In this document: positions 7,320 through 35,700 of the stretch, one piece after another
Position numbering within the stretch: the stretch's first letter is position 1
How the letters are laid out: each line of letters starts with the position of its first letter
Assembly: GCF_006345805.1 (NCBI RefSeq)
Contig: NC_043007.1
Coordinates: 60,388,001 to 60,452,000 of the forward strand
DNA: 64,000 bases
Direction of reading: 5' to 3'
DNA from: Octopus sinensis
Taxonomy: Eukaryota
Made by a program: the position numbers and the translations under genes
The notes under the pieces: generated by a model
Databases searched by the model: none
What the model was told of the DNA's origin: nothing
The model's input: the letters and a program-made list of their open reading frames with translations, nothing else

Positions 7320-7380
<61 letters not shown>

Positions 7381-9415: not shown

Positions 9416-9489
<74 letters not shown>

Positions 9490-9744: not shown

Positions 9745-9962
9745 TACATTACAGCACAGTCTATCAGACAGTGTTGCATCTTTATGGTACGGAGTCAGGT
9801 CTTCAAACAACAAAAATGGGCTGAACATTCTCATCACAAAGGCTTATCCAGAGCGCTTTCAGAAGAATGGTACATTGGTGAACAAAATTCAATGCATCAG
9901 TGACCAGGGCAAATGTAAATCCAACTTCTTGGAGGACAAAATATGTGCCAGGAAACCTATCT
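9745..9962 (-). repeat. Second diverged copy of the hAT segment 8123-8371
   Basis: Direct alignment by eye; internal deletion bounded by acaa microhomology. Confidence 0.85.
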
Positions 9963-9964
9963 CT

Positions 9965-10240
9965 GAGTGCATCCTTGAATGGCTGACTAGTCTAATATCA
10001 TTAGATGTCTTTTTGTTTAATGTTTCATTGGTGGTTCCTTTGATATTTCTGATTACTTTAGACAGGCAGTTGAACATTTGAGGACCCCCAAACATCAGGC
10101 TCATACAATAAAGTGTTTTTGCTTGTGATTTTGAAGGTGGTGTATTTGGAAGTTGACAGTATCTAACAGTTCATGCATTAAAATTCTCTCTAATTCTGAA
10201 GTTTGGAACAGGATTTTCCATACTTATGTGATAGTGTGTA

Positions 10241-10274
<34 letters not shown>

Positions 10275-12250: not shown

Positions 12251-13786
12251 ATGGTTTTTGTTACATACACACACACACATACATATAAATGTAAGATCTA
12301 AGGATCCATTCTAAATCTAAAAAACACCTTTCAGGAACAATAGAGTTTTATTGAGGCAGAAGGTTGTGGATTTTTTTGTATCGAAGTATGATAAGCTGGA
12401 AAAAATTATTTTTATATTTCACAGACAACCAGGGTTGCCGGGTATGCGAATAAGAATACAAGAGTTAAGGAATAGAGTAGGTAAGATCCGGGCTACATAT
12501 GTTTCATAGCAAGCAAAACCTCATATATCCAAGTGAGGTGTATAATGCAGGCTACTCTTCAAGCCAAAGATATCTTGATTAAATTAAAGTTTACATTGTC
12601 GCAAGGAGGTACATGCTAACACATGGAAGATTCAATCACAATTCTGACAGAATCTTCTGTGTAAAAGGGTTCTTTTTATTTATTTTAGTTCTTTGTTCTA
12701 TTTTGTGAAGAAGCCTAACTTCAAGCAACTTTTTACAGGTCAATTTTTAAACACTATTTTCTAAGCTTGAGAAAGGTAAGTAAGGGGTACAATATTGAAT
12801 TTTGTACTCTAACAATATTTTAGGGGGTGCACTTGCACCCCCTGTTCCCAGGCCCTTGGGTGGGAACAATGACACACACACATACAAGCTTCATTCAGTT
12901 TCTGTCTGCCAAATCCACTCACAAGATTTTGATCAGCTTGATGCTATAGCAGAAGACACTTACCTCAAGGTATCATGCTCTCAGATCCATTTGATGGGGA
13001 TGCAAATGTCTTACCATGCAGCTGCAGTTATTTAGGCCTGAAATAGATTCCTAGCATTCTGTACAATGTATATTATCACTATCACTGTACTTGTCTTTGC
13101 TCCATACTACCTTCTTTAGGATGGATCACACAATTCTTCACAGCTTCTTGTCATCAGGTAGACACATCAGCAGAGGAAACCCAGACAATGCTCTCAGATG
13201 GATGTTCTTCCTATCAGCATCCACTTTGAAATGGGATGAGTGCATTTAATCATGTCACCTTGTTTTGTTCAGAATTGTAAATGACAACTAATTCAGTATA
13301 TATGTATGTAGTAATGTTTGTTTATTTGTATAAAATCAATGAATCACTCAGTTTTATGCATACCCAATTATTCAAGCTCTTATGCTTATAGATTGCTGAA
13401 AAATAAGATGGTAAAGAGAACTGTTACTGATTCTTTGCTCACACTGGCTTGTCGTGCTTAGGTGGTGATACTGATTAATGAACACCAAGAATTATTTTAC
13501 CACATGAGTACCTAAATGATCTTACATGCATAACATTATGGTTGAAAGAGACGAAGTGAATCACCAATTAACACAAATAAATGTAAAATTTCATCAAAGC
13601 TAATATATATTACCTTGGCCATAAATAAATGTTCTCTACTCTTTTTGTGTATGTCTGCTGTAATCGAGGGCAATGCTGTGCTGATGTCACCCATTGGGTA
13701 CCATCTGCTCCAAAAACATGGGAGCACAACTGTTCTCTTGTCTTCAGAAGATTAAACAAAAATGTCTTTTTCTTAATGGTGTGTGT

Positions 13787-13828
<42 letters not shown>

Positions 13829-13830
<2 letters not shown>

Positions 13831-14167
13831 GGACCCCCTTCGGTCACGACACTGACCATGGGATTGCACCTAGAAAGTTACCCTCCTAGTCACAAGACTG
13901 GGCAAGGTGGTTTATGGAAGACCATCAGTCGCCCATGCATACCGGTCTCCCCTCTCCACGCCTCCAGTGTTATCCAAGGGAAAGGCAGCAGCCAATACAG
14001 CTTGGCACCAGTGACGTCGCAACTCATTTCTACAGCTGAGTTAACTGGAGCAACGTGAAATAAAGTGTCTTGCTCAAGAACATAACACGCAGCCCGGTTC
14101 GAGATTCGAACTCACAACCTCACGATCGTAAGCTCGACGTTCTAACCACTGAGCCACACGCCTTCAC
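13829..14167 (-). mobile_element. tRNA-derived SINE (family C)
   Basis: Reverse complement begins GTGAAGGCGTGTGGCTCAGTGGTTAGA...GTTCGAATCT (A/B boxes); 3' part shared with 41588-41786. Confidence 0.85.
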
Positions 14168-14557
14168 ACACACACACACATATATATATATATTTATTTA
14201 TTGTTTCGGTGATTAAACTGCAGCCATCCTAGGGTACCATCTTTCTGAATTTTTGTGGAATGAATTGTCCCCAACACTTATTTTCTTTAAAGCCTGATAC
14301 TTTTTCTATTGTTCTCTTTTTTCAAAACTGCTAAGATACGGGGATGTAAATATGCCAAAACTGGTTGTCAAGTGGTCAGCAGGAGACAAGAACCACACAC
14401 ACATATACAATGGGTTTCTTTCAGTTTCTGTCTCCCAAATCCATTCACAAGGTTATAGTAGAAGACACTTGCCTAAAGTGTCATACAGTGGGACCGAATC
14501 CAGAACCATGTGGTTCAAAAGCAAACTTCTTACAACATAGTCATACCTTTGCCTATA

Positions 14558-15838
14558 CAGGGTGTACCAAAATGAAGGCAACACCCTTTTTTCAGTTTTG
14601 CCAAAGCAAAATATTGTCATATTTTCGGGTCTAAGCATTGCAATGCTATGGTAAAGGAAACACAATTATGGCACTACCAAATTTATTCAATATGACCACC
14701 TCTGTTTCGAATGATAGCCTTAAGTCTAGGTGCAAATGCTTCACATGTGGCACACAGCTGTTCTTGCAGAATCAAAACCCATTCCTGGCACAGTTTTGCC
14801 TTCAGTACATCAAATGAAGCATCAAGAGTGCTCAAGACCCTCATCTCTAAAATGAACCAAACAGAAAAATCCAATAAGATGAGACTGGAGCTTCTTGAAG
14901 GCCATACATCCTTGCCTGTGACCTGTGAATGACAATGTTTTTCTGAATCTAGTGTTGTGTCTGTCTGTTTGTAGAACTGTGGAGTGTTGCCGTGTCCTGC
15001 TGGAGCCTCCAAGGTGCACCTTGAAAGTGTTCATTTGCTCATGGAAGTGCTTCAGCTTCCAGAATGTTGCTAATGTATTGCTGGGTGTTAATTTTAACAC
15101 CCAAGGACACAAAAACAAGGAGAGACCTTCCAGTGGCTGTCACAGCCACCTAAACTATAACTGACTGTGGATTTCAGCGTCAATTTACAAGTCTACCCTT
15201 GACGGAGCCTGATACACTCCAAAGTCTGTCATTCTGGTGGTTTACTGTCTGTTCAATGTCAAATTTCTTTTCATCAGTGAACACCAAGTTGGGCAACATA
15301 CCTTCAATCTGACACAAGATAAGATGACTTCTCTTCAGTCTCATGGCCTTATAAACTTGTGTGTGTTCATGACAGCAGATCATCTTGTAGAAGTGGGTCC
15401 TGAGATTCTTCTTCAGCACTCTATACATCAATGTTCAGTTTATTTTGTTGAGGCAGCCAGTTTTCTGACAATAATGAGGATTTCACCATATCTTTTCTCT
15501 AGTACTTTTGATAGGCTGAAGGGTCCATACACTTTTTTTTCAGCCATGTCCAGGTCAATCAGTTGTGGAACTAGTCTCTTGAAATTTTTTGACAGACTGT
15601 TGTTCAGTTAATTTTAAGTTTTTTTTACTATAGTTGTGTTACTTTCACCTCCTTTGTGGAAGGTTATGATTGTATTTTGGTCTATAGCCATTATCTAATC
15701 TATAAATCTGAATTTTAGTCTGAAACAAAAAGAAGAGACACTAAGCTTTTATATGATGTATAATTTTCAGATTTTATCACACTTATTGATAGTTATTAAA
15801 GCCCAAAACTTTGGTTGCCCTAATTTCAGGATACCCTG
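14558..15838 (-). mobile_element. Tc1/mariner DNA transposon, maT/DD37D-like, decayed
   Basis: TIRs CAGGGTGTACCAAAATGAAGGCAAC / GTTGCCCTAATTTCAGGATACCCTG, left TA; fragments LVFTDEKKF...NHQNDRLW, WPSRSSSLILLDFSVW and RGGHIE. Confidence 0.88.
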
Positions 15839-15960
15839 TGTGTGTGTATAGATAGATAGATTCCAGAGAACTGTTCTGCTAAGGACAATTTTGCTTTTCA
15901 TCTTTTCAGGGTTGATAAAATAAGTAGGCAGCTGAGCACTGGACTCAATGTAATCAACTT

Positions 15961-16196
15961 TATTTCTTTATTGCCCACAAGGGGCTAAACATAGAGGGAA
16001 CAAACAAGGACAGACGAACGGATTAAGTCGATCATATCGACCCCAGTATGTAACTGGGACTTAATTTTTCAACCCCAAAAATTGATGAAAGGCAAAGTCG
16101 GCCTCAGCAGAATTTGAACTCAAAACGTAATGGCAGACGAAACACCGCTAAGCATTTCGCCCGGCGTGCTAACGTTTCTGCCAACTCGCTGCTTTA
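15961..16196 (-). mobile_element. SINE (family D, Meta-domain-like) nested in an older related SINE, with 14-bp TSD
   Basis: AATGTAATCAACTT at 15947-15960 and 16197-16210; GCCTTTCATC...GGGGTTGA-type central domain. Confidence 0.8.
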
Positions 16197-16595
16197 AATG
16201 TAATCAACTTACTCTTCCTTCGAAATTGCTGGCCTTGAGCCAAAATTTGAAACTAGTATATCAAGAATTTATTTTACATAGTATACTTTGTCTTTGTAAT
16301 TCAAAATTTATGCCATAGCAATTCTGTGTTATTTTTGTTCATACATATAAAGCAGCTGAAAAATTTATAATTCACATTAGAAATATGAGTGAAAGCATAT
16401 CAAAAATAAAAATCTACATTTTCAGTTCTATTTAAGGTACAGATGTGTGTCATAGATATAGAATCCCTTCATAACAACAGCTTAAGCAAGTGTCTTCTAC
16501 TACAGACTTGGGTCAACAATACATTGTGAATTAAATTAGTTGGCAGAAACTTTACGGAAATCTCTTGTGTGTGTGTGTGTATGTATGTATATATG

Positions 16596-16633
<38 letters not shown>

Positions 16634-19600
16634 GCCATATCACCTGAAGAAATGAAAAAAGACTCACCTGATATCCATATATATTATAGATTAAACTGTA
16701 ATCATCCCAGGTATGTGGGCTATAGTCACAAAAAATGTGATTTGTGGAAAATGGATTATTATTACTACTACATAGAAAGTGTCTGTGTGTATATATATCT
16801 TTTACTTTTTACTTACCTCATTCATCACACTGCAGCATTGCATTTAAGAATTTTAGTCAAATGAATTACTTATACACAATGGGCATCTTTCTGATTCTGT
16901 CTACCAAATCCACTCACGAGGCTTTTGTTGGCCCAAGACTATAGTAGAAGACATTTGCCCAAAGTACCACACAACAATAGTTGCATCTAATTAATTTCAT
17001 TGAGGTTTATAACATGCCTACCAGATCATTCCATGGATTTGCAAAATTCTCCTTTTTAATCAGTTTTTGAAGTATAATTGACTAGGTTCCTTCAGGAAAT
17101 GCTGATGCGGTGATCAGATTACACTTTTCCCCTAATTATCGTTATTATATAATATATATATATATATATATATTATTCAAAGGAATTCCAACTCTGTCTG
17201 TTTTTTATGTTTTATTTATATTCTTTATAATATTAATGTAGAATATAAAGTATAAATAGTATATATAGTAAAATGAAATGAAGTATTGATTGTCTTATTG
17301 AATAGATGAAATACTGAATATCAAATATTAAGGGACTAGCATACTTTCTTGTATTAAAGCAGTCTTCATGGTCCCAGGTTGTGACAGGAGTGTTTCAATA
17401 CATATATGTAAACATTATCAATACCACATGCTTAAGATGTGTGTTGTTTAAATGCCAGGAGCTGCAGTTTATTGTCCAGGAAAACCTCTTTAAAGACATA
17501 AAGTGTTAAAAAACATACTTTAGTGCAAATCAAAATAAAATCACCCTTGAAGCAAACACAAGAGCAATAAATATGCATTTCACTGTAAATGCAGCTTATC
17601 AATATCAGGCACTCAAGTCACCTCCCAAATGAAATCAAAATCTCTAGCCTGAAACATAATACAGATGGTATAAAACCTATTTATTGGTTAGCAACGGTAC
17701 ACAAGTAGAATATCTCCAGATTGTGCAATAGAAGCATCTTTATAATACAAACATTACTAATACCACATTCTTAATGTACATGTGTTATTTTGTATGTATG
17801 TGGCATTGTTTACCTTCCACATGGTGTCCTATGACAACTTTTGAACAAAACATCCTGTACCTCTTGGATTTTTTACTTCTAACATCTCATGAAATATTAA
17901 AAGAATAAAATCTTCTATTTGTTGGCAGCAGAAATGGCATCTGGCCATAAAAATATTGCTTCATAAAACATCTTCATCCAACTCATGCAATCATTGAAAA
18001 TTGGACATTAAAATGATGATATATATATGAATGTACTTTCATACATATGTGTTTGTTTAGGCATAGTTATAATAATGTTAAGAACTTCACTTCAGAACGT
18101 TGTAGTTTAAACTGGTCATGTCCAGCCCAAACATTTTACCCATTTTATCTTCAAACCAGCCAGATCCAGCCTTTCACATCTACCCTAAAATGTCATTCTA
18201 AAAATAAACAATCACATCTTCAAAATTTCAAAACTATGAGGTAATGAATGATTAATTCAAAACTATGTAATTAAATAAACATTTCTTTTGATAGTAATGT
18301 GAATGCTAAAGGGTTCGTTCCCATTGTCAGCCGTATCTTCTCCAGCTGCAGGCTGACCAATGCCTTGTAAGTAAAATTAGTAGACAGAAACTGTTAGAAT
18401 AATGTCTTCCCCTTGACTTAACATTTCACACACTTTGAAAACAGTTTCCATTCATACAAACTGTGTTGTTTGTTTACTGTCTTCCAAGAAAATATGTCCA
18501 GCAAATGAGCTGTTCATTGTTCAAAGGATTTGTTGAAATATTACCTTGCTTGGAGACGAGTGAGGGTTGATAACAAAAGTACCATCCAGTTGTAGAAAAC
18601 TATATCTCAACAAGCTCTGTCTGAACAATGCAAGTATAGAAAAGTGAGCATTAAAGCAACGATGAAAAAACGTCTTGTCATTAAGCATTTAAAACTTATA
18701 CTCATTCAGCAACAGGCAAGAATTTCAAAACACTAATCATTTAATTTAGCACTTCCAGTGTCTGTATGTTGCAGTACCCCACATACCTTCATATATCTAC
18801 ACAGGTCAGGGTGATGTTCCATTTACCTGTATTCAGAATTAGACATGTTTTGTTTTGGGGTTTTTTTCAACTTTTTGCTTTCACTCTTTTATTTCTAATG
18901 TGCATTGTGATTTTATAACTCACTCCTATCTATTTCACAATGCTTCAAATAACCTACTTTTTTGTAATATGTATGTGTGTGGAGGTAAGATTGTATAGTT
19001 AAGAACTTTACTTTGCAACCATGTGGCTTGGGGTTTGTTGTCACTTTGGACACTTGGACAGGTCTCCTCAACTATAGCCCTTGTCCATTCAAAGCCTTGC
19101 AAGTAGATTTGGTGGATGAAAACTCAAAGAAACCCATTGTATATATATGTGTACACACCTTTATTTTGCACAATGGTTGTAAACAAGTGGCATTGTCATG
19201 CAAGTTGTGTCCTTTGTTTCTAGTCTTCCATGAAAACATCTTAAGGGATATAAAGTCCATCTGCTCAACACATAAAAATGTAAAATAAATAAAGGAAGCT
19301 TGGGAAAGTGGATGTATGGGTAATGTAATGTGAATTTTTATAACACTTGATAAAAATATACAAAGCACCATCTAAGGATTGGGAGGAAGCATGCTTATAA
19401 ATTTTCTTCTGGAATAGATAGCTAGCTGTTGTTTGTACTATAGGTATACTGGTTATATACATGTATAGGTTTTGTCATGAATATTTGAGTATGGTTATTT
19501 AGAATTCATCCAGTGGAAATATATAATTTCTTTTCTGTAGTCTTGCAAGCACATTATTTTTAAGTAGCTTCTAAGTAAGAAGCTTGATTTTTTTTTTTTT

Positions 19601-22396
19601 TTTTTCTTCTCCAGCTAAAAATTTTCATTCCTTGATTTCTATGTAGGAACAGGAGTAAGTAGAAAATGAATCATTAGTTTTGAAAATTCTTTCTGCAAAC
19701 AGCCATTAATGTTATTCCTTTCATTCTCTAGAATTTTCAACCTTGTATTGACTAATTGTTGAGAATAACCATTATTGACTGAAATGTTGGTAACTGAAGA
19801 ATACATCAGAAGTAAATACTTTTGAAGGAAGTTTTATAAAATTTCATGTTAGCTAATCCGTTGTACTCTGTTCAGTGAATAGAGTAATTAGAATGCATAA
19901 GAAGTGAGAATAATCAAACTGATACGGTTAAGCTGTTTCATTATTGTTCTTTGAGACATTCTCTTACAGAGTATAACAGTTCGCTAAAAGATTTTTGAAG
20001 TCATACAGACAGAATTGCATTGTGGAGTTAATTTCAGCTACTTAAAACTCTTACCTAACAACCTGCTGTTACACAATAAAATATTTTCCTTTAAAACATA
20101 CTGTTGGTGAATTCATATTAAATAAAAAGTAGCTCTCACTTGGATGGTAAATATTTTTGCTAAATTTAATTTTCCTGACAAGCAGAATGATAAATCTTTA
20201 ACACAGTATCCAGTGACTGAAAACACCAAATTTACATATTCACAGCTCCCATTTGACTAGCTTTTTGATATGAAAATATATTGTCACTGCTGATACCAAC
20301 CCACCTAAGATGCCCCTTGATTCTATGATACAAACTTCCTATTTTAAAGTTATCTGAATTAAAACCTTCCATTAAAATTTTGTTAAATTATATTCCAAAA
20401 AGTTATTTTGATAAATCGTTTTTTTTTTAAATTATTCAAACAAAAGACTGTGCAACAGAAATATAAGAAAGATTATTAATATAAATAACAATGTTGATAT
20501 TTGCTATGGTCAGTAAACCAGTTAAGATATACAGAGACAGTATTAAGTCTTATTGTAAGAGAAAACAATAGTTTTCTTAATTTTCTAAATACAACGAGTT
20601 ATCTGTTGAAACTTGTACCTTTATGTATATTTGTGTGTGTGTATATATATATGTATATTTGTGTGTGTGTATATATGTGTGTATGTATATGTATACATAC
20701 ACTTCCTCAATTACATGGATTTTGGCATATTAACAATTCTGGACATATTCTTAAATCTCTTAGGTAACATTGCTCGACTGATGTGGTCTTTATTTGATGA
20801 TTATCATAGACTCTGTTGGTTATATGACTATTGTTCACTCTACTGGATAAGCTCATCATCTTAAGATTTGTCCCAACTTACTGAACCTGTTTATACTTAC
20901 GTAATCAATTTTGCCTTCAATTACCTCTATGCAATTTCTTCAGAGATTGCTGCATGTGACTCTGTTACAAGAATTTAGATTTTCATGGTGCATGTGAAAT
21001 TTTTTATTAATGTTATTTCAAAAGTAAGGGTCTTATTGAGTATAAGTATAATTTTATGATAATGGTCCTTTAGTGATTAGACATCATGACTTCATTGAGC
21101 CCTATGATTTTGTGTGTGTATGTGTGTGTCTATGTACACACACACACACACATGTATATAATGCATTACATTCATCATCATCATGAAATTAATGCATTGC
21201 AAACATGATTTCATTTTGTCACATCTACTTTTATCAAAATATACTTCTTTCATGAATGTTATATAGTGCATGATATTTTTCTTTGCTCTCTCACACATAT
21301 ATACATAATATTATGTGTATATATATGTGTGTGTGTATATAATTTTGTGAACTATACACCAGTTTCAGTTGCAGAGAGAACAGCATGCACTATTGCTGCC
21401 ATATTTGTCTCTATCAGCTTCACATGCCATCTGTGCATGAAATGCACAAATCCATATGTTGAGTTAATATTAGTGTGCAATCATCATTTCATAACCACAT
21501 AAATATGTTTCCTGTTGCAAAATGCACCTCATCCAATTCCATACATATGACTTGGGATTCAATCCATGCTTTCATTAGTAATGATCAGTTTGTAAACTTT
21601 AATCTTTAGTGATAGTTGATTTAAGCAACCAAATTATTAAGTTTTTATATTTATATTTTTTATTAATACAACCTTTAAGATTTGATATTTAATTTCAGTT
21701 CTACACAAAACACAAATTTTTATTCCATTTAATGTAATGTCTAATAGCTCTCCAATCAACTATCTACATAATCCAATGGTGAAAATTAATAAGACAGCCT
21801 TTTCTATATTATGGTCAGTTAACTATATATCAATTCATGACTGAGCAGTTCTAATGATAAACCAAAGTGGCGTGTTGTTGATACTGGTGTATTTTTATTT
21901 TTTATTTTTGTTTGTATTTTTGGGGGGTTTTTTTGTTGTTTTTTTTTTACTTTTCTTTTTAGGATATGAAGGCATTGTATTGCCCCATGTTGCTAGTACT
22001 GATAAACATTTCAGTTTATTACTTTTTATTTTTGTCAGTGTGTACACATTTATTTGTAAATATTTATATTGTTGATACAATTTGCAGAAAAATCTTGATG
22101 CTATTTTATACAAAACTTGTATAAAAAAAAATAAATAAATTGCCTTCCATCCAAACAACTGCAACTGTAAACAGTATTTGATATGAGTAACGTTTACCAA
22201 GATTTTACTGCATTTTTATGCACCAGAATTAATAAGAACAATTGTGTACACACCATTCTCCATATTTTATTTATAATTTCTACATTTCTTTTATAATCTA
22301 CAGCAGCTTACTATTTTTTTCATGATTTTGTTGGTTAATCACTCTACAGCTTTACGTCTTAAGTTAATATCAATTTGTTCTTTCTGTTTTTATTAG

Positions 22397-22426
22397 TGCT
22401 TGCTAATGAGCCAGAGGGGAATATTG
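22397..22426 (+). CDS. ATP2B: Candidate 30-nt PMCA microexon at splice site A (xLANEPEGNI)
   Basis: Polypyrimidine tract + tattag | 30 nt | gtatgt; phase 1/1 with no stop; GCATG 30 nt downstream. Confidence 0.6.
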
Positions 22427-24332
22427 GTATGTGTATTTTGAATTTTTGTTTTTGGGCATGCTTGGGCCAGATTATGGTGTTTCTTTTCAAACTGAATCTA
22501 CTATCTCTCACTCAATCCCTTTCTCTTGCTCTTCTCCTTCAATGCATAATCTGATATCCTTGTTCTAAACTAAACAACTGTTATTGCCCTTTATCATTCA
22601 TTAATCGTGTCCTGCACCCTGTTGCTTCCTTATTTATCTAATATTCCTGACCCATTCCTTGACTTCTGAGCTTCATTGCATGATACCACATTTATGTCCT
22701 CAAGTAATTCGATATTAAGACACTGTGGCCAACACTAGCTATAACACACTACTTTGGTGGCAATGGTTTTCTGATGCTCACTTAGCTTCTATACAGGATA
22801 GTGCTAAAACCAATAGTTGTTGTTAAAGAACAATTTCAGATAATACTCCATTTTAACATCTCACTTTATTTTGTGTTCTTGCTTTCATTTCTTTATCTTC
22901 ACTTTGTTTTTCTCTACCACCAGTTTTTCCTTACCTTCCTGTACTGATATAACCCTTCCTTTACAAGATACCCTTTTAAACAAAGACAGTCTGGACTTTT
23001 AAACACTTATCCCTTCAACACTTCTCTTAGTTTGCAACCTTTGTTTTTTTTCCCACTTTTTTGTGTTCACCAAAAATTTTAATATATTTTTGTTTTATTT
23101 GAGCATGAATTTACATTTGTATGTCATCATTTTTTATCTGTAAGTATTAAACACTAATTTCGTTATATACTAAACATTTTCCCTTTTTTTTTTTTTGTGG
23201 TCTAAGTTACTTTCTTTCCTCATTACAGTGTATATTTTTCGTTATTTTATGTTATATAATATTATTTTAAAATACATACATTTTTATTGTATTCATAAAC
23301 AACACACTAGGCAGCATTTTTATTTTTATAAATCTAATCCCCAAAGGTTTAGCTTAATTTAAAACCAGTGCCTTCTGTTTTAAATTTAGAAACAATTTTT
23401 TTTTTATTTTGTCTGAACATGTCAAATCAGATGTAAATATGATAATTTTTGGTTGGTTTTAGTTTTTCCATTGACAGTTCTGTCGTATGGCTTTAGTTTT
23501 ATGTGTATATGTATATTTTGTTTTGTCGTATGTCTTTTATGTTCCTTTTTCAGCGTTTGTCCAAATGTACTTTCATTTTCCTGTTCTACAGGTATACTTC
23601 ACTCCCCTTTCCCCCTTTTGTTGCGTTACTTGGAGGCTATTTTTAGGTAGGAAGCTGTGAAAGTGCAACGATATAAGCCTGGCTTGTTAGTCTAATTTCA
23701 CTTGTTATTAATTCAGTGAAATCAATTTTGAGGAATGATCTATATAAAAACAATTTATCATGTTCTAGTTTTGGTGTCTATTCTTCTAAATCAAACTCAG
23801 TTGTTCAGGCTCTATCATAAAATTACAATTAAAATAGTTTGTTAATTCTAAAAGTACCCCCACCACCACCAATCAAAAAATTCAGTTTTATACTTAGAAG
23901 AAAATCTAAGTAGATGCATAAAAATTTTATACAAAATGCTTTTTTTTTTTTATTTCAAAAAAAAAAAAAGTTTTTCTAGCAAGTTTAGATATCATAAATA
24001 TTCTAATTAGAAATAAAATATGACACTTACTCATAATTATTATAAGAATAACACAAAAGTTTTCCTACTGTTTTATTCAATAGATTTGGAAGACTTTCTA
24101 ATATTTCAGTAAACTTTGTTTAATGTTTTATAACATATTCTTTCAGCTCCATTTGTGATTGCATTTTTTGCAAAGAAGTAAATATATCAGAAACTTTCAG
24201 TTTCTCCTATTTGTAAATAGTTTGTTGAAGCTTCATAATTTAGTATTTAACCGAGGTGCTCTTAGCCTACTTGCACATATATGTGTTGCCATCTGTTTAA
24301 TCATTGGTGGTATTTCACCATTTGAATTTCAG

Positions 24333-24410
24333 ATAATAATAAAGTGAATACTGCGGACTCAGGAAAGAAAGCTTCCCATGTCTCTAAGGCATGGCTTAAT
24401 AAATCAAGCT
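24333..24410 (+). CDS. ATP2B: Candidate 78-nt PMCA cassette exon at splice site A (xNNKVNTADSGKKASHVSKAWLNKSS)
   Basis: tttcag | 78 nt | gtaagc; phase 1/1, open, polar and basic like the PMCA A-site loop. Confidence 0.55.
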
Positions 24411-26142
24411 GTAAGCGATTTCTACTGTTTCAACATATTAAACTTGCTGAGCCCTATCTTTGTTGGCCTTCATCTTCTTTCTTACTGCTATTTCTAACTT
24501 CCTGGAAAGCACCTACTTTACCGTACTCTCAGTCCTCTGCCACAGACTTTGTGATTGTTATTGTGTAGCTTATTGATAATGTGGAATAATTTCTTCATTT
24601 CTCCTTGACTTGTTGTGCTTTCTCAGTTCAAATGTTGTTTTGTTCAATGTCTTAGTTTTTCTTTCAGTTACAATTTATTAGTTGCTTAGATCTTACCACT
24701 CAGAAGTATGTTACTTCTGAAATCTGCCCTAGTCAATTATCCTCTGCTCTTCCAAGGTCAGCTAAAATAGAAACTTCTGAATGTAGGTCTTGCTCTATAA
24801 ACAGATCTAACTAAGCTTCAATGTTTGAAACAAATCCTTTTCAATCTGTTTACACATTTATGTCTGTGTTTATTCTAATGCCACCTAAATTGCAGCAATC
24901 CAGAACTATGAATAATACATGTGCTGTTTTATTTCGATGTGTTGACAACTTCTACACACATAGATATTTGCACGTTAGTATGCATGCATGCATACTATTA
25001 AACAAAAGAAATTAACTCAGTTTTTTGCATATATGCGCCCTGAATAAATTTTACACGCTTCATTATCATTTCTTTCTTTTTATTGCCCTTTTATAGAAAG
25101 TTATTGATAGTTTCTTAGATACAATAAGCTAAAAATAATATATACTTATCTACTGTCATTTCAAATTAAAGTTACTCACCATTTAATCTGCGTAGTTGTG
25201 AATAAAGATTTTTTTTTTTTAAAGGAAATGAAGAATATTTTAAACTAACAACTGCTGAAATCTTCAACCTTTGATTAATAGAAATTACATTGATTATCCT
25301 CTAAAGTATAAGGATAAGATGTCTAAGCTTCTTGTTTGATGTTTCAGTTTTGATTTTGTTTTGTCTTTTACCCAATCAGCTCTGATGAAACTATTATCAC
25401 TGATACCAATCTTGTGTTGGAACAACCCCCAAAGACAATATGTCTAATTATGGATTGGTTTTTTTTTTTTTGATAGTTTTATGCTAGAAAAATTTTACCA
25501 CAGATGATGGTACAGGCAGAGTAACTTCAGCAGGATTTCAATTTGGGACTGTAAGTTATTGAGTCCTCAGTGAATTACATCCTACTCCAGCACCTAACCA
25601 TTGAGTCACTTTCTGTCATTGTTTGCATCACGCAATTGTCAGTTTTGAAACCTACCCTGTACTTAGTGGTACTGGAAATTCAGAAAGTCTTAAGAAAAGC
25701 TTTTAAGAATTACCGATTAAATTTTGCTCATTTCAGTATCATACAATGAGGAATGCAATGCTTTCTGAAGAAAATATTACTTATGCAGGATACATTATTT
25801 AATAGAGAAATTATCTAAAATTCCATACATTTTCAAAAGTTTTTAATTAAATAGAAATTGTCCTCCAATAATGTACGTTTTTGCAATATTTAAGGATATC
25901 TTTTCTTTTTAAATTCCACTTATATAAATCTTTGCCATTATATTCTAAACATGTCTTTGCTTATTTCTCTGAAACTGTAGTTGCTTTTGTACATCGCTTT
26001 CAACAGAGACAAGAGATGAAGAATGGCATCTCCACAGACTTAAGCTTTGTGTATTTTATTGAAAGGAAAAAAAATCTATTCCTTGTGTGTATCTGTATGT
26101 TCAACATGTTGGCTATTTCTCCAAACTTCTTTTATTTATTAG

Positions 26143-26160
26143 GTAATATCTCACCATCTG
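26143..26160 (+). CDS. ATP2B: Candidate 18-nt PMCA microexon (xNISPS)
   Basis: cttcttttatttattag | 18 nt | gtacag; phase 1/1; donor only moderate. Confidence 0.4.
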
Positions 26161-26902
26161 GTACAGTTTGATGTACAGTAAATTGTTTGAGTGAATACAT
26201 GTTCTGTATTCATCAGTAACATCAATATGCACATATATATACATATGTGTATATTATACATTTTTATTTTTGTTAAACAAAAATCAGTTTTATTGAAGAG
26301 CTGTTGGTGTTGTGTGCCTGTTCATGCATGCAGATTGGCAAAATGCCAATGTGAAGACAGTTGCATTCTAAGTAGTTTTTAAAAAGTTAAATATTAAAAA
26401 CTTTTTCCTTTCCTTATTTCAGAGAATAGAATCAAAACTTTTCTCAACCAAAATATTATTTTCTTTTGTGTGTGTGTGTGTGTGATAGGCATTCATCACA
26501 TGAAAATATTAGTATTTCTTGTATGCCTTGCATATAGTTTTCTTGATTTCACTTATTGGACAGTGGTCATCCTGAGGTACCACCCCAAAGGTATAAGCTT
26601 CTTCTCAACTTCAATTTTTCAATGTGTATATATATATATATTTATATTTATAAACCATAAAATGTTAGGATATATGAGAGGTGAATATATTTAACCATTA
26701 TACATGCATAGGATTACAGCTGTTTCGCAACCTTCATCATGTAATAATAATTTCCATGTATAGTAAATTATGTTTATATGTCTGCACTAATATGCATGCT
26801 ATGCATTACACAATACAATTGTACATTCATGATTCATTAAATAGAGAAAGCTAGCTCATCAGATTACCAGAACATCAACTGTATGTATACATACAAAATT
26901 TT

Positions 26903-27131
26903 CTCTTTATACTCTTTACTCTTTTACTTGTTTCAGTCATTTGACTGTGGCCATGCTGGAGCACCACCTTTAATTGAGCAAATCGACCCCAGGACTTATT
27001 CTTTGTAAGCCTAGTACTTATTCTATCGGTCTCTTTTGCCGAACCGCTAAGTTACTGGGACGTAAACACACCAGCATCAATTGTCAAGCGATGTTGGGGG
27101 GACAAACACAGACACACAAACATATACACAC

Positions 27132-27224
<93 letters not shown>

Positions 27225-27401
27225 TATATATATACACGACAGGCTTCTTTCAGTTTTTGTCTACCAAATCAATCCACTCAGAAGGCTTTGGTTGGCCCGA
27301 GGCTATAGTAGAAGACACTTGCCCAAGGTGCCACACAGTGGGACTGAACCCGGAACCATGTGGTTGGTAAGCAAGCTACTTACCATACAGCCACTCTTAT
27401 G

Positions 27402-27402
<1 letters not shown>
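26903..27402 (-). mobile_element. Full-length family A SINE with expanded (TA)n
   Basis: Reverse complement of the 3154-3550 type element. Confidence 0.9.
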
Positions 27403-27444
<42 letters not shown>

Positions 27445-29639
27445 TATCTATGAATGATCGAGACTAGATAACATTAGTTAGGTACGGTCAGTGAAAACAA
27501 AGATGTTGTTTCAAATTAATTAGAAAATGTGATTGAAATTAAGGTCCATAAGTTCATATAGATGTATAATGTGTAACATGCATATTAATGCAGACATGTA
27601 AACATAATTTATTATGCACTGAAATTATTATTACATGAAAAAGGCTGTGAAATGGCTGTAATGCTAAAGATGTCAAGTGGTTAAATAAAAATAGTACTTC
27701 TCATACGTCCTGACATTTTATAATTTATATACTCCTCATGAAATAATTTCATTAGTCAGATCTTCTGGATTTCAACTGCAAGGAACTCTGCATTATACTC
27801 TGTTAACTGAGTCTGTTAGAGAAGCTTTCAGTGATAGCCACACAATTCTATAAATCCATACATTACTCTGCAAATGTGTGTGTGTGTGTGTATTTATAGA
27901 TATGTGTGACATAAGTGTATATATACATGCATATATATATATGTATATATGGCCTGGTTCTCTTGCTTATGTCAACAAATGTTTCAGTTGATCATGAACA
28001 GAACAGTCTGCTCATGAAATTAACATGCAAGCGATTGAGCACTCCACAGACACACATACCCTTAATGTAGTTCTCAAAAGATTCGGTATGACAAAGAGAG
28101 GGACAAGGCTGGCCCTTTGAATTACTGGTACAGCTTGTTTTTGCCAGCTGTAGCAATGTGAAATAAATTGTCTTACTCAAGGATACAACATACTGCCTTA
28201 TGATCATGAACCAAATGTACTGACAATGTACTGACCTTATGATCATGAACCAAATACCCTAACCACTAAGCCGTGGGCCTTGATGTGTGTGTGTGTGTGT
28301 ATGTCTAATGATCATTATTTACCATTCAGCTTCCATAATAGCTTAGGCTACACTCTTTGACAGGATCTAATGGGTGAAAGGACTGTATACTGTTTCAGTG
28401 TTTGTTTTGGCATGGTTTTTACAAATGGATCCCATTCCTAATGCCAACCACTTTGCAAAGTGTACTGAGTGTTTTTCTCATGGTACTAGTACTATTGATA
28501 ACTTGCAATGTTATAGGGGCTCCAAAGTAGCCCCTATAACTGTGGGAGGACAGAAGAGACAGTAGACAATGATCCTAGGTGAAGGGCTGAAGGAATGGCA
28601 TGTAGGAGGGAAGGCTGGGGAACTATGGCAGGGAACAAGGGAGAGGGGAAAGGATTAGTGGGAGGGCTGAGAAAAGGTGGATGTAGAGTTGAAAGGTGAG
28701 AAGATGAGTTGTGTTAGGCTAGTTGACATTATAACCTGTGAGTAAAAAAAGGAACGGGGAGAAACAGACTAAGTGGGAAAAGAATCCTGCATGAATTAAT
28801 GAATAAAAGAGATATGTGGGAAGTTGTGCCAGGGGGTGGGGAAATGAGGTGTGTTGAGTGCTGTGAGAGAAAAGATGGTAGAAGGAGATGGGTGAGAAGT
28901 AGACACTGGAGAGTACCATACAAGCAGGAAGAAGAGCAGTGTGTTAATACTACAGAAGCATTATAGAGGAGGAGACAGTGCAAAAGAAGGAGAGAAAGCA
29001 AAGGGATGAAACAGTAGGTAGGTGCAGCAAGAAAAAGGAAAAGCTAGAGGGCATTCAAGAGCTGTAAGGAGAGGTTGTGGGATGTTGGGAGGTAATGGAA
29101 GTAACACAGGAAAAAGGTATGATGTGAATAATGAAGAGATGCCAGTCCTAGAAGGGAGATATAAGGAGATGGGTGATAATGTAGGCTTGATGAAGTTCAG
29201 TTTATATACATACGTATGTATTTAGAGAGAGATGTATCTGCGTATATATGTGTGTGTTAAATATATAGGTGATATGTACAGAAAACAAAAGACAAAGACA
29301 GGTGAAAGAACAAGCAGGTGCATTAGTTTGATGCTTGGGAAAAAGGAAAAATCTTTGAAGTTTTGAACCTAAGCTCTTTGATAGAAAGGGATGAGAGAGG
29401 AAAAAACGAAGAGAGAAAAATGTGCTGGGATTAACAATTCAATATGATGAAATGTGTGTGTGTATGTATATAGATATATATGAGTTGTCTAACAAGTAAT
29501 TTGGTCTGAGACCATGTGTTATAACTAAAGCAATTACAGCATTGAAGACATTTGTTAGTGATTTAAAAGATGTTAACTTCAATTATTTATGTCAAAATTT
29601 TTTTCTCAGTATCTGCAACCTGACTACTGACACAAGTTT

Positions 29640-31414
29640 CACTGCAACTGGTCTGAGACAAGGCTATTGATTAATATATGTAGCCATTGGTAGGTTTTAA
29701 GCAGTCATTCTGGTTACCATCACCTGGTGCTCATTGTAGGTCAGTTAATTTGGTTTTTGATTGAAATTCATTTCAATCTCTTCATTTCTCCTTTCAGTGG
29801 GAACACTTATGGCATTGTACAATCTAGCAGAATCAGAGTTTAATCATTTCAGAGAAAAGAATTTATCAGTTCATGACAATAGAACAGACATAATAGGGAG
29901 AAAAGTTGATACAAACAGTATGAGAGTGCAAGCAACAGCAGTAGTAGTAGTAGCAGCAGCAGCAGCAAAAGTGGTATTATGGCACTTTTAGTGACAAATA
30001 TAGTAAATCCTTTAAATTTAACTAAATAACAAAAATTCTATAGATGAAAATGGTTGCTAATTAAGCAGATGAAAAACTAAATACTAAAAATTGGTATGGG
30101 TACTAAAAATAACATAATAATAATAATAATGATAAAATGATGATGATGATGGATAAAGAGTGGATAAAAAGTAATAGTAAATAAAAGGTTACAGAGAGGC
30201 AGAAGGGTGGAAAATTGAGCACTTTTCACATGAGGTGTACAGTTTTTGCAGTTGAGGCTATGCATATGCAGACAGACTCTGTGACTTGCCTTAGTATAGT
30301 ATCAGAGACATGGATATGATATCTAATCTAAATCTATGGAGCTATTATGGTAATCAAGTGCATGTTGTTAGAAAAGAAAGAGGTTGGTCTCTTTTCAACA
30401 TAGCTATTCCAGTACTCCATGGAAACTTTAAAACTCTTAGAAGTATCACCTACATAGGATTCAGGGAGATTTGCACATGCTCCTTCTAGACACCTTATCT
30501 GATTTACAGTGTTTTTAATTTGTGATCAATATGTGGATTTGTGGTTTGCTATAGTGTTAGTGGAGTGTGCATGGTTTCATTACTTCATTGATCATGACAT
30601 CCTCAATCCACAACTCTGTATCAAAAACAGAATATTCTACAAGAGTATTTAGAGGGGCAGTCTACAGTAACTTTTTTACTATAATGAATAGAGTTGGTTA
30701 CATATTGTATCACCATCATCTTGTGTTTTCATCTGACCAACAGCATGTGGCAAGTTTTACACAGGACCAATGTCATCTACATAGCAAGAGTACATTGCCA
30801 AGTGAACAGCAAGAGCCACTAGCTTTTCTCTGAAATGTCTGTCATACCATACTATAAAAGTTCTAGTGACAACTCCTGCAATTCCAATCCCAGTTGTGCT
30901 GCCTTTCACCTTTTTATAAAGTTTATTATTAAACTCGAAAATGTGGGTGCTAAGTGTATGTTTTTTTAAGCTAGCACTGACAGATGGGTGTGATAGCAGC
31001 CCTAATGTTGTGAAAGTCCAAAGTGGGGTGGCTAGGTCTGATCCAGCAAAGGAAGTGTTCTTTATGGGCCTTTCTGATTGTTAAGCAGTAGTGTAGAGTG
31101 TTTAATTATGAACAATTTTGCTTTTAGAATTTTTGTAATTTAAAAGACATTAGTTTGTTACTACAACTGTCACTATACTACTTTTACAACTACTACTATT
31201 GTTGTTGCTGATACCACTTTCACACCCACCCCCTTATAATGTTTGTATCAACTCTTCTATTGTCTTTGTTCTGTATTAGATTCTCTTTGAAATCATTAGA
31301 TTCTGATTCAGCTAGACTGAAGAATGCCATTAGTGTTCCCACTGATAGAAGAAATGAAGAGAGAGTACATACCTCAACCATGAATTTCAACAAAAAAACC
31401 AAATGAACTGACCT
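29640..31414. mobile_element. Two copies of the same repeat (probable LINE 5' region) in converging orientation
   Basis: 29738-29960 (+) matches 31175-31414 (-); the ORF track gives SSFLLSVGTLMA on both strands. Confidence 0.7.
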
Positions 31415-31899
31415 ATATAAATGAGAGAGAAAGAATATAGCAACTTCCCTTAGTCTTGAAAGACCATGGATCTATGATGCTGGAAAGATTTTCTTCACCA
31501 TTATTTGTAGAGCAATGTCTACTGTGATTATAGAGACCCACACATGAGTGATAGTCCTGGCTGCAGTGATTGCATTTGAAGGTGCTGTCCTCCAGTCTTG
31601 TCCTGGCATTAGGTTTTCCTTAGGTTTTCTCTTTCTTTTTGCTGCTCTGAACAAAACGAAGTACTGTGCCAAGGTGTTAAGCACACTCCTACCATTGCTA
31701 TCAACAGCTGCAGATATATATATATATATAGTCTACAGATATATATATGTATGTTTATGTTTATGTGGCTGTGTGGTTAGAAGCTTGCTTTGTAACCACA
31801 TGGTTTGGGATTTAGTCTCACTGCACGCCACCTTGGGCACTTGACTGAGAGAAAGTGTGTAGAAGTTCATTGTGTATGTACACATTCATATATTGCACT

Positions 31900-32770
31900 C
31901 GCTTCTGACACATCTGCTGTAAATAAAACAGTCATTGACATTCTTGAACACCTTAAATCTTCCTCTCTCTCCTCAATATGGATCCCCTGATAAAAGTTCA
32001 GTTAAAGTATTGACTGCATCTTGCATATAGATTCCTCATCTAAACTTTTCACTTACAGATTCCATACATATCTTATCTCCTGGTTCTATAACTGCCTATC
32101 AATTTGCTCCAATACTGTGTATACTGATGGAGCTTTTCTATCTTACTCCTCATGAGCTTTGATGTGCCACGGGATTTTCTTTTGCCCCCTATTCTCATGT
32201 CTAACAATACTCACTTTTATAAGATGACATGATCCATCATGCCTCACTAACCTTTCCCAACCACATATCCCATCATGACCCAGACAGCACATGGCTTACC
32301 TGTGCTGATCTATAAATGATGACCTTGAAAGCATTCTCCAATGGAGTTATACCAATCTTATCTCTTAGATCAGCAAGTACTACTCAAATCAAGAAAACAA
32401 CACACCTCCACACACACAAGCAGTTCTCTACTAGAATCCTGCACAGTTGCCCAAATTTTATGCTTTACTAGGATGGCAAGTCTCTCTTAGTGAAAGCATG
32501 TCCTTAACATCATAGAACTACATCTAAAGGACTAGCCCTTTAAGAAACAGAGGCCATTATAATAGATGAAGAAAGGCAATAAGAATAGATGGTGTGCCAG
32601 TGGGACAGAAGCTGCAGTGTGTCTGTTAGGTGAGTGGTATATCTTTGGATGCAATCCAGGATATCCATGTGTGCAACTGGAGTATCAGCCCACATGTAGG
32701 AGCAATACTGCATTGTGGGTCTGATTTCAGCTTTGTAGAGTATTGACAATTGCTGACCCTTCCTCCAATC
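31900..32770. mobile_element. Decayed CR1/Jockey-like LINE RT, 3' part inverted
   Basis: Plus-strand gtgccacggga (GVPQG-like) region; minus-strand LYKAEIRPTMQYCSYMWA. Confidence 0.55.
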
Positions 32771-35700
32771 CCCACAAGTAATATATGTGTGTGTGTAAGA
32801 GAGAAAGAGACACAGATAGACAGGATGCACAGCTTCCAACTTCTAAATTCCACTCACATTATTATGGATTGATTTGAAGCTATAGCTGAAGATACCCAAG
32901 GTGTCATGCAATAAGATAAAATCCAATCCCATGTGATTGCAAAGTGAACTTTTTAATTATACCATCTTCTTTGCACCTGTACCGAAGTATATTTCAAAAT
33001 TTCACAGCTAAATAAATAAAACAGAAATATCAATGAATTTTAACCTTTTTTTCTTTTTACACACAACTCTAATTAAACCCACTTCTTCATCAATTGTTTT
33101 TAATATATTAGTTATATTTTCTTATAAACTTAGTTACATTTCATTTTGTCTGATTAGACTTTCTTTGTATGATTTGGGTTTCACCTGAGTGCATAAGACT
33201 GAATTTAAAATATAATAGATTCTTAGCTTCTACAATATACCACACAAGTCTTCGACATTAAAATAGATTGGCCCATTTTGTTTTTCTTTCCTGGAACATT
33301 TTTACTACTTTGTTGTATTTCTTTTTATTCGCATTTAACATTTTATAAGTGTTTTGTAAAGTAATAAAAAGGATTTCTTCTTAATTCTGGATTCTAGAAG
33401 AATTTCTTCTTTCGTTAGAAACCAACCTTTTTAAATGTGACATTCTTAGAAGATTTGTACCACTAAGCACAGTAACCAGTTGAAGTGAGGTGTTTATAAT
33501 TTTTTTGTCCAGGATCATGGTGCGATTGATATGAACTCATTTATAACCCAATAACCCTTGAGTTGATGGTCTGCTAAGTTATTCCATCTGTATACTCAAG
33601 TTGATTTAATCTCAGTTTGATTTAATCTTTGACAACACGTTTGCTTTCTACTTGCCAACAGGCACATTTTGAATTCAAACTGAAAAAAACATTATTACCA
33701 AAGTGTTTCACACATTGTCAAGTGCATAAAAGATGACTTACTAGATATGTTATATATCAGATATATTCCAAAATTAAGTCAAATTGTGTGTACATTACAA
33801 AGATTGTTTTACTTTTTTAGATCCTAGATTTTGGTCTGTAGGACTTATAAACCCGGCAGTATATGTAGAATGTATTAAATTTGCTGCTTCAAAACTGATT
33901 TCTTTTCAAAGAATTCTGACAACTGAGGATTTTGAACTTTGAAGTTTTAGCTGTTAATTTGATTTATATAGTCTGTTTGTAAATGAAAAATATGGCTTTG
34001 AGAGTGAAAAATTAGTTCTAGTCTTCTGCTTGCTTTGCTATTTGCAACAATTTTATTCAACAATTATTAGTTGAATAAAGTGAAACATATGTTTAAACTA
34101 TTGTGCTTTCTTCGTTTGAATCATTTCAATGTCCATCAAAAATGTGTTATAATCTTGATAATGTTTTGATTTGAATGTTGTAATATTTTAAATGCAAATA
34201 GCTTTTTTTAAGATTTAAAACCTATAAACTCATGAAAGTTATTGAGACACTACAGCTTTTAATTGTCACAGAAAAATTGCTGAATGTTTGGCAGTTGTTT
34301 TTACTATGAAATAAAATGTAGTCACTGCCTGAAAAACTTACCAAATTGGTTGTGATATATTGATATATATATTGATTGTTATTTGGGTCAGTTCAATTCA
34401 AGAACATAACTAATATTAAATTCTTGAAATATATGTAACTGTTGATAGCAAGTCTATCAAATGAATCCCAATAAAGGAGTGATGAAATCAAATTCAAATT
34501 TCTCTGCCAAATAAAGCTTGACTCCTAGTGCAAGCAGCTATTATGAAATTCAGACAACTCTCTTTTGCTTGCTACTTTGATATGACAGCATAGCATTCTG
34601 TGATGCTAAGTAGTTTTTTTGTTGTGTTGCTATTAAACCAATGTGGCTTTCTTTGGAATATATGTTCAAGTGGAACAACCAATACACTAGCCTAAGTAAA
34701 TTTTCAAATTATTACATTTCCAAACACAAAAGTCACAAGGACAGACCATGAACTTTGGATTATCAATATTATGACGTGAGTAAACTTCAACAGACTTCAA
34801 CAACTGTGATGAAAGCAAATAAGATTTAGAGTAGGTCAAATTAGCTTAGTGTAATTGTCTATGGCTTGCTTTTCATTTGATTACTCACTTTCTATGGTGA
34901 CATTTTTTCTTATGCTTTGTGCACATGGATTGTTTTTGTATGTTTTATTGCATTTGTTCCCCTCGACCCCTTTTTTCAGTTTTGGACTGTTATTGTTGAA
35001 TTCAAATGCTTCTACAAAATCTATTACACAAGTCATTAAAGTTATGTAAAAATTAATTACATTTAATACTAATATGTTCAGAAACTTGATTTTGAGAAAT
35101 TAAAAAAATATATCTATGTACTTGTATGAAACTTTTATCTCCTACCAACATGTGCTTAGAAAATCATTGTATCTCTCTCCTCAATTAAAAAGTAACAAAA
35201 TCCTATGTTCAAGGATTGATGAAACTAATGAACATGTTAATATTATATAACTATTACTTAGTTGTATTACTTTAAGTTAAGAATTTGATTTTAATTGGTT
35301 AAGGTAAAAGGTTTTCATGTTTGTCAAAGTTCAGGGTTGGTACAAGAAGTTTTTTCTTTGTTTATTGATTAAAAGCATCTTACCATCATTTCTTTTTCCA
35401 TATTCCTTGCCAGCCATTTATCTTTTTTGCTGCATTAAAACAGCAGTCCTTTCCTGTAAAGAATTTGCTGTCTTAAGCTATATGTGTTGAAACTGAGCAA
35501 AAATTTGTTATAAAAATGATACTTGTGACAGATGAGATCCGTTACCTCAAAACTTACCATTCAGTACAATATTGTAATATTTAGACATCAATGGAACGTC
35601 TGTCAGAAATCACTCTAGAATTCTTGGTAACAGAGATGCCGAAAGCTATGATTGAAGCAGATACTAATAAAGCTACTTGAAAGATAAGTTAAACAATATA

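Follow-up and report, generated by a model that had tools for sequence, protein, structure and literature searches.

Does a transposon-poor island inside one very long intron of an octopus calcium pump gene hold optional exons and, if so, how many of them are real and how widely are they shared? The locus lies in a stretch of 64,000 nucleotides from Octopus sinensis (contig NC_043007.1, positions 60,388,001 to 60,452,000 of the forward strand), here called the window and numbered from its first letter, and the gene is that of the plasma membrane Ca2+-ATPase (PMCA), which in mammals is alternatively spliced at site A, in the loop between the actuator domain and the third transmembrane segment (TM3). 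The original prediction, made from the letters of the window, saw in the island at least three frame-preserving cassettes that would form a microexon system particular to cephalopods and likely to be missed by automated annotation. The answer reached here is that two real optional exons of 30 and 78 nt (A2 and A3) lie in the island and are used in frame together with a 36-nt exon further upstream (A1), and that the surrounding repeat-free DNA is likely kept by selection on the control of splicing. This reading is considered probable as a whole; its exon structure, with A1, A2 and A3 each optional, is very probable, and the functional step, that by analogy with mammalian pumps the cassettes would change the sorting or regulation of the pump, is regarded as an even call.

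Judged by its sequence, the window is part of the octopus PMCA gene (ATP2B; a P2B-type Ca2+-ATPase) on the plus strand. PMCA open frames are found on that strand at 36738-37490 and 45148-45747, and at 50585, 54732, 58606 and 63724; the exon at 36820, used as a query, retrieved cephalopod and other molluscan PMCAs, and RefSeq PMCA proteins of O. sinensis match the window exons letter for letter. One isoform (P0017) was mapped exactly, exon by exon and with splicing, onto a 264-kb block around the window, and it matched the PMCA2 and PMCA1 structures PDB 9gsd_A and 6a69_A with E=0. Homology to PMCA1-4 extends over the full length, and the domain order is that of P-type ATPases. The giant site-A intron that had been predicted is 59.2 kb long and of phase 1, running from a donor at -22430 to the acceptor exon that starts at 36820 (negative coordinates lie upstream of the window, counted in window coordinates). 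The optional exons fall between the actuator domain and TM3, upstream of a basic stretch, which is the position of site A.

The first evidence for the cassettes comes from annotation. Among the 15 listed of the 28 members of the Octopus RefSeq cluster, 12 span site A, and A2 is present in 8 and A3 in 9 of these, so the expectation that automated annotation would miss such exons was wrong. Across the listed isoforms of two Octopus species, A1, A2 and A3 occur in five combinations. Since all three are of phase 1/1, any subset keeps the frame, adding between 0 and 48 residues in steps of 12, 10 and 26. The supposed confinement of the cluster to the island did not hold either, as A1 lies 35 kb upstream of the island cassettes, outside both island and window.

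The second line of evidence is RNA. Seven of the 24 listed runs were compared with the window as assembled contigs, which drop rare forms and give no inclusion levels; the runs carry no tissue labels, and they are taken to be spliced RNA because the contigs show GT..AG joints. A junction from A2 to 36820 was found in 6/7 runs from 4 studies, the upstream exon was joined to A2 in X1, X4 and X10, and A1 to A2 in X1, X4 and X14. Among the junctions listed, X1 alone joins the upstream exon to A3 and X10 alone joins A2 to A3. Five junction types are thus seen in RNA contigs, corresponding to several frame-preserving cassettes used in combinations, as predicted, and A2 is part of the dominant contig in most runs. 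The donor of A3 scores 1.5, compared with 6.0-13.7 for the constitutive donors, in a splice model trained on the 18 internal constitutive exons of the gene. The A3 peptide, which adds five lysines, is identical in two Octopus species, whereas the next constitutive exon differs. Positions of these and other features are collected in Table 1.

Table 1. Features in and around the site-A intron of the octopus PMCA gene, in window coordinates.
Feature	Position	Strand	Evidence
Cassette A1, 36 nt	-12884..-12849 (G000:C11:60375116-60375151), outside window	+	RefSeq isoforms, RNA contigs
Site-A intron of PMCA (59.2 kb, phase 1), 3' part	1..36819	+	Spliced mapping of P0017
Island free of interspersed repeats, 6.2 kb	20466..26648	.	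Genome search, self-comparison
Conserved island core	21962..25082	+	Organism B contigs
Predicted 26-bp RNA hairpin, 7 G-U pairs	22367..22430	+	Folding prediction
Cassette A2, 30 nt, phase 1/1, x-LANEPEGNI	22397..22426	+	RefSeq isoforms, RNA junctions, homologues in molluscs and nemerteans
Cassette A3, 78 nt, phase 1/1, lysine-rich, x-NNKVNTADSGKKASHVSKAWLNKSS, weak donor	24333..24410	+	RefSeq isoforms (two Octopus species), RNA junctions into it
Near-invariant intron after A3 (~670 nt)	24411..25082	+	Organism B comparison
22-nt palindrome with two overlapping UGCAUG (RBFOX-type) words, putative sites	24976..24997	+	Sequence
AATAAA, then U-rich tract; possible intronic poly(A) signal	25043..25048	+	One of 14 such hexamers in 21500-26700
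18-nt candidate, probably a chance AG..GT pair	26143..26160	+	Without RNA or protein support
Element flanked by 125-nt terminal inverted repeats, with an internal high-copy repeat; forms the island's right border	26649..27687	.	Sequence comparison
Constitutive acceptor exon (phase 1), leading into the basic stretch that precedes TM3	36820..37041	+	P0017 mapping, splice model

Two further observations concern A2 and A1. In the intron just after A2 (22427-23170), contig cover in X1, X4 and X9 is about twice that before A2, or more, and the contigs end at 23070-23170, near an ATTAAA at 23146; contig depth is a poor measure. The acceptor of A1 has UGC at -9, -21 and -24 and an AG-free zone of 93 nt, the signature of eMIC-type neural exons, and none of the 18 constitutive acceptors has UGC at -20..-4. 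On these sequence signals A1 is the best candidate for neuron-specific inclusion. No UGC was found within 40 nt of the acceptors of A2, A3 or the 18-nt candidate.

The claim that the island is poor in transposons was borne out. A search of the octopus genome with 21500-26500 gave four first-look candidates, the segment itself and three low-complexity matches of 35-51 nt, and its 5-kb flanks gave 17,355 and 17,674; the 5 kb is single-copy. The borders of the island were set by self-comparison of 864 kb of genome sequence, and within them are microsatellites at 20622-20694 and about 21100-21350. The terminal inverted repeats of the element that forms its right border are 82% complementary. Among 578 repeat-free gaps in 600 kb taken from other blocks, 1 was at least 5 kb long and none reached 6 kb (at least 5 kb in 2/506 under a stricter mask), the local repeat library being small, so that low-copy elements escape it. 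Within the gene, the gaps that contain alternative exons measure 13.8 kb (site-C last exons), 7.6 kb (A1), 6.2 kb (A2/A3) and 4.1 kb (the third last exon) and are longer than the 15 gaps containing constitutive exons (median 1.6 kb, p=0.001), the 13.8-kb gap being the longest in 264 kb. The pattern therefore recurs at A1 and at the alternative exons of site C, and the island is not unique in the gene. As repeat-free gaps flag alternative exons in this gene (4/4), they may help to locate exons still missing from the annotation of repeat-rich cephalopod genomes. Long polypyrimidine-AG acceptors had also been thought abundant in the island, and 19 acceptor-like sites were counted in its 5 kb; the figure for overlapping windows of this length taken along the gene is 9.0 +/- 3.8, with values up to 17. 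The excess is modest.

The cassettes lie in DNA that has changed little. Across the island core, another taxon, here called organism B, differs from the window by 16 substitutions in 2068 covered bases (0.8%), compared with 39/909 (4.3%) at 25239-26156 in the same run (p=6e-10) and 174/4020 differences near the acceptor, so the cassette flanks diverge less than the bulk of the intron in this one other taxon, under partial cover. The organism B DNA run keeps 0.48 of the 31-mers, where about 0.2 would be expected at the background divergence of the intron. In A3 and the intron that follows it (24332-25082), organism B shows 1 difference in 751 nt, and conservation falls off 0.7 kb past A3. JGI metagenome scans found no DNA of other cephalopods for comparison, and a search for shorter proteins was likewise empty. 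RBFOX sites (UGCAUG), of which two putative, overlapping examples occur in a palindrome in the conserved intron, are enriched near alternative exons according to the available text of PMC2041973. At A2, the predicted hairpin would form between the exon and the polypyrimidine tract and 3' AG of its own acceptor, with the donor's first four bases also buried (-21.4 kcal/mol, z -4.5, 0/200 shuffles); 21 other acceptors, folded in the same window, gave z -1.6 to +1.3. Other stable hairpins are predicted at 32260-32328 (z -5.5) and 32673-32741 (z -4.4), at the 5' edge of a 5.7-kb repeat-free stretch before the acceptor exon. No A-to-G differences in the island are listed for X1, X4 or X14, but contigs drop rare variants and so provide no evidence on editing.

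Homologues of the cassettes are found well beyond the cephalopods. Counterparts of A1 and A2, of the same or similar size and independently optional, are present in limpets (Patella), abalones (Haliotis), periwinkles (Littorina), pulmonates (Biomphalaria), oysters, clams (Mya, Mercenaria) and two nemerteans (Tubulanus, Lineus). A chiton has an optional A1. Argonauta and cuttlefish/squid-type proteins carry A1+A2 or A2, the A2 of squid and cuttlefish differing in two codons, and A3 was found in Octopus only (9 proteins). The occurrence of A1 and A2 in gastropods, bivalves and nemerteans makes the system lophotrochozoan and not, as first proposed, cephalopod. Lineages have also added cassettes of their own at site A, as in oyster and snails, and gastropods and bivalves have an extra cassette of 7-9 residues before A1. 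An octopus homologue of the latter was sought in the site-A intron and set aside, the best profile score being 5.6 with poor splice sites and none usable. A3 was compared with a 25-residue chiton exon (P0064) and shares 6/25 residues ungapped, with p=0.006 when no offset is allowed, 0.17 when any is, and 0.39 for local alignment.

No orthology of the octopus cassettes with the vertebrate site-A exons was found. A1-A3 gave no alignment with the PMCA4 and fish PMCA2 inserts that formed the comparison set, outside which lies the mammalian PMCA2 w insert. The Pro-Leu-Leu (PLL) window described below best matches the constitutive QPL segment in 4/4 vertebrate loops, but with p=0.03-0.13, and in the loops of two chelicerates and a hemichordate the best match lies elsewhere. 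Among proteins P0266-P0273 and P0158, scorpion PMCA has two different site-A cassettes of 13 and 22 residues, the longer of which holds ELSPL, and a mite has ELIPL; both resemble vertebrate EIQPL/EMQPL and molluscan PLL. For Drosophila PMCA, the available text of PMC8797185 gives a 36-nt alternative exon somewhere in the gene. With apparently unrelated sets of cassettes in the same loop of vertebrates, chelicerates and lophotrochozoans, site A would be a clean case of recurrent exon gain. The literature searched held no description of cephalopod, molluscan or lophotrochozoan site-A cassettes, of the junction motif, of the hairpin or of the near-invariant bases behind A3; VastDB lay outside this search and may list the exons. 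PMCA goes unmentioned in the available main text of bioRxiv 10.64898/2026.09.05.749416, a study that includes O. bimaculoides and whose supplements may list exons.

A feature of sequence, and not only of length, is found where A1 meets A2. A1 ends in a pyrimidine (T in octopus; T or C across the loops, both of which keep Leu), so the codon split by the junction reads Leu only when A1 is joined to A2, completing Pro-Leu-Leu; any other exon in front of A2 gives Val, and skipping of A2 gives Tyr. Over 156 different loops from non-vertebrates, Leu stands at the junction in 29/29 A1-A2 contexts and Val in 36/36 in which A2 comes after some other exon; contexts with A1 but without A2 have Tyr or His (15/15), and 22 are unclassified. 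The A1-A2 class was defined by a preceding Pro and a residue other than Val, and the two Pro-Val cases are upstream exon ends by isoform comparison. Pro-Leu-Leu or Pro-Leu-Ile (PLI) is present in all 29 A1-A2 contexts. Given that 13 of the 18 constitutive donors in the gene end in G, the restriction of the final base of A1 to T or C suggests that Pro-Leu-Leu is under selection. The consensus of acidic dileucine sorting signals is [DE]xxxL[LI], and the Leu-Leu/Ile pair lies in a cytosolic loop whose exposure is inferred from the disorder of its mammalian counterpart. Dileucine motifs in the C-terminal tail steer PMCA trafficking, according to the available text of PMC9307954. The motif bears on the open question of whether site A acts by length alone or by sequence.

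From these observations a possible mechanism can be outlined. One PMCA gene yields a set of loops that link the actuator domain to TM3 and differ by subsets of the 12-, 10- and 26-residue inserts. Inclusion of A2 is likely limited by the hairpin predicted over both of its splice sites, and for A3 a minor and regulated use is likely, with a donor that acts slowly and enhancers in the near-invariant intron behind it. In mammals the loop between the actuator domain and TM3 is disordered and lies beside basic residues through which acidic lipids activate the pump, and the splice form alters apparent Ca2+ affinity (PMC10690453, available text); the site-A form of PMCA2 affects apical as opposed to basolateral targeting (PMC5641333 and PMC8835232, available text). 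By analogy, the octopus loop variants would alter membrane sorting through length and PLL, and the five lysines of A3 would alter the sensitivity to acidic lipids, as site A does in mammalian PMCA2.

Several findings weigh against this reading. No junction from A3 to 36820 is among those listed for the 7 runs, so that RefSeq models alone give it, and the contigs that are spliced into A3 continue unspliced through its donor. The conservation figures come from the partial contig cover of one other taxon, and the junction counts from related species, which are not independent samples. PLL lacks the acidic residue at -4, where most of the 26 windows listed have Gln or Pro. The octopus loop has 85-123 residues in the listed isoforms, compared with 47-61 in most mammalian PMCA4, and since even the shortest listed loop (85) exceeds that range, a mammalian threshold of about 30 inserted residues is not simply transferable. 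The A2 hairpin was found post hoc, and 32 kb of repeat-free DNA holds 5 comparable non-microsatellite hairpins; the chance that one would cover any of three cassettes is thus a few percent, making the predicted structure a lead of modest strength.

Among the other explanations is one in which the cassettes are real but do no more than vary the length of a disordered linker, with nothing specific encoded in their sequences, the PLL junction or the hairpin. The disorder of the mammalian loop fits such a view, as do the finding that apical targeting persists when an insert longer than 30 residues is scrambled (PMC5641333) and the freedom with which oyster, snail, chiton and scorpion lineages have added cassettes. 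It is nevertheless judged somewhat unlikely, because the sizes of the exons, the GQxxP/LL.E pattern (the stroke marking the junction) and the final pyrimidine of A1 have been kept from nemerteans to octopus in a gene where most constitutive donors end in G, and because the A3 peptide is the same in two Octopus species while the constitutive exon after it has changed.

The main rival, that A3 serves mostly as the start of an alternative last exon or of a detained intron, is unlikely. Transcripts would then read through to the stop codon at 24566-24568 and end near the AATAAA at 25043, yielding a truncated or non-productive PMCA message that throttles output, and the 670 conserved bases would be a 3' untranslated region or a retention element. 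Contigs from three studies fit this course, as those of X1 and X10 splice into A3 and then run unbroken to 25088 and 25082, and that of X14 stops at 25086; the weak donor and the single difference in 751 nt agree with it, and the read-through frame is open for 52 codons (p about 0.04). However, A3 is spliced onward in the RefSeq models of two species. The X4 contig reaches 25180, and the cover of X1 and X10 over 25239-25824 (18.8 and 19.4) is similar to that of the A3 extension (23.2 and 11.5), as would be seen with unspliced pre-mRNA. The contigs that stop do so 34-40 nt past the AATAAA, in a T-rich tract, and splicing of upstream introns first, ahead of a long downstream intron, is common (PMC10250204, available text). 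Compared with the remainder of the core, A3 and its intron also show just a modest excess of conservation (p=0.016). A regulated, in-frame A3 is preferred.

It is improbable that the island has been conserved for a DNA enhancer or a hosted non-coding RNA, with the exons merely lying inside. Conservation does extend over about 3 kb, longer than exon-proximal splicing elements usually need, but the same repeat-free pattern accompanies A1 and the alternative exons of site C, and conservation ends soon after A3. Rfam gave no match in the conserved intron, and all 10/10 of its hits in the island were microsatellite artefacts below the gathering score. The conserved intron has no stable global fold (z -0.65). 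A hosted RNA or long duplex there was considered and rejected on these grounds, and because long-range complements were no better than direct-repeat controls.

The remaining question is the third segment of the original prediction, of 18 nt. Like A2 and A3 it is bounded by AG and GT, a multiple of three and stop-free in phase 1, so the geometry described for all three segments is correct; the splice model, however, finds 10 such candidates on the sense strand of the site-A intron and 13 on the antisense strand, and exon-like geometry alone is therefore uninformative. The 18-nt segment is present in 0/338 proteins, no junction to it is among those listed for the 7 runs, and the X1 and X4 contigs cross it unbroken. 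It lies outside the conserved core, with 9 substitutions and 7 gap letters in the 323 nt upstream, a 3-nt insertion in its pyrimidine tract among them. With a chance-level score in addition, it was set aside and is probably not an exon. A length limit of 27 nt applies to microexons of the eMIC/SRRM4 type, and the real exons (30, 36 and 78 nt) exceed it, the unsupported 18-nt candidate alone falling below; UGC with a long AG-free zone is seen at A1 and not in the island, so the term microexon does not fit the island pair. A cephalopod-specific, unannotated cluster of three or more microexons in the island, including the 18-nt segment, is accordingly very improbable: although the splice model ranks this segment 4th of 10 in the intron, above A2, with a 75-nt AG-free zone, and although 13/28 members of the Octopus cluster fall outside the listing, contigs drop rare forms and 18 nt is shorter than the contig word length, candidates are no rarer on the antisense strand, A2 and A3 are annotated, and A1 and A2 are pan-molluscan.

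Another candidate of this kind is seen at 25097-25099, at the end of the near-invariant stretch, where a weak donor stands three bases beyond a strong acceptor that has UGC at -13 and whose AG-free zone spans 74 nt. From its sequence this is a possible 3-nt microexon; joined after A1 or A3 it would introduce a stop, and neither RNA nor protein evidence supports it.

A bolder synthesis can be framed, although it is distinctly unlikely in full. In it, site A would be an ancient splicing switch of molluscs and ribbon worms, in which a sorting-type PLL signal is assembled through a split codon only when two tiny exons, 35 kb apart in octopus, are brought together; in octopus, A2 is gated by a hairpin that is possibly sensitive to temperature or ADAR, and A3, with its near-invariant intron, either adds lipid sensitivity or is a truncating off-switch. 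If true, the products of a single gene would reach different membranes, whereas vertebrates divide this task among four genes whose site-A exons arose independently. In kind, the core result is unexceptional, since site-A splicing of mammalian PMCA is textbook knowledge and the octopus exons are already in RefSeq.

Elsewhere in the gene, five listed O. sinensis RefSeq isoforms begin the acceptor exon 6 nt early (36813-36826), with an intron ending in AT and not AG. Organism A RNA contigs show a direct join at 36820, and other cephalopods have two extra codons at the start of this exon; the longer models are probably an annotation artefact. Downstream of the window, site C has three alternative last exons (82074, 83564 and 93211) within 70161-93423 (loci L012-L014), the second and third of which are paralogous (~40% identical). 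Later introns carry transposon-like fragments on the minus strand at 42199-43234 and 59553-61083, which resemble a mariner-type transposase and a LINE reverse transcriptase/endonuclease, respectively. Used as a query against the octopus genome, one PMCA exon brought up 19 candidates, of which 2 were matches, the gene in the window and a divergent, compact PMCA-like gene (L082:2614-5967, G000:C8851) on an unplaced contig of 41% GC, with apparent introns of ~25 nt and 39-76% identity to the octopus protein by segment. Tiny introns are typical of dicyemids, and the compact gene may belong to a parasite of this kind that was sequenced along with the octopus.

Among known systems, the neural microexons governed by eMIC/SRRM3-4 (PMC8797185 and PMC10250204, available text) resemble the octopus cassettes in being short, symmetric exons with conserved introns, and A1 shares their UGC and AG-free zone; they differ in that the octopus exons are 30-78 nt long, A2 and A3 have no nearby UGC, and A2 is in most dominant contigs. 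The RefSeq PMCA sets of molluscs and nemerteans (XP_036363419.1, XP_052827678.1, XP_050411569.1, XP_034306043.2 and XP_074644591.1 are examples), which are automated models only, show the same A1 and A2, with A3 added in Octopus, in many combinations. Site A of mammalian PMCA4 (x/z) has a 36-nt optional exon straight after the lysine run (MmuEX0006835; PMC8797185), the size of A1, but its peptide is unrelated to that of A1 and it is a single cassette. The closest parallel is site A of mammalian PMCA2 (ATP2B2; forms w/x/y/z), which is also placed in the loop between the actuator domain and TM3, after a lysine run and before the basic stretch that responds to acidic lipids, and which likewise uses three in-frame cassettes in combinations, with a maximum insert of 45 residues compared with 48 in octopus. 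No homology between the cassettes was detected, the base loop is much longer in octopus and its exons are spread over a 59-kb intron; and where mammals have four PMCA genes, one octopus-type gene was found.

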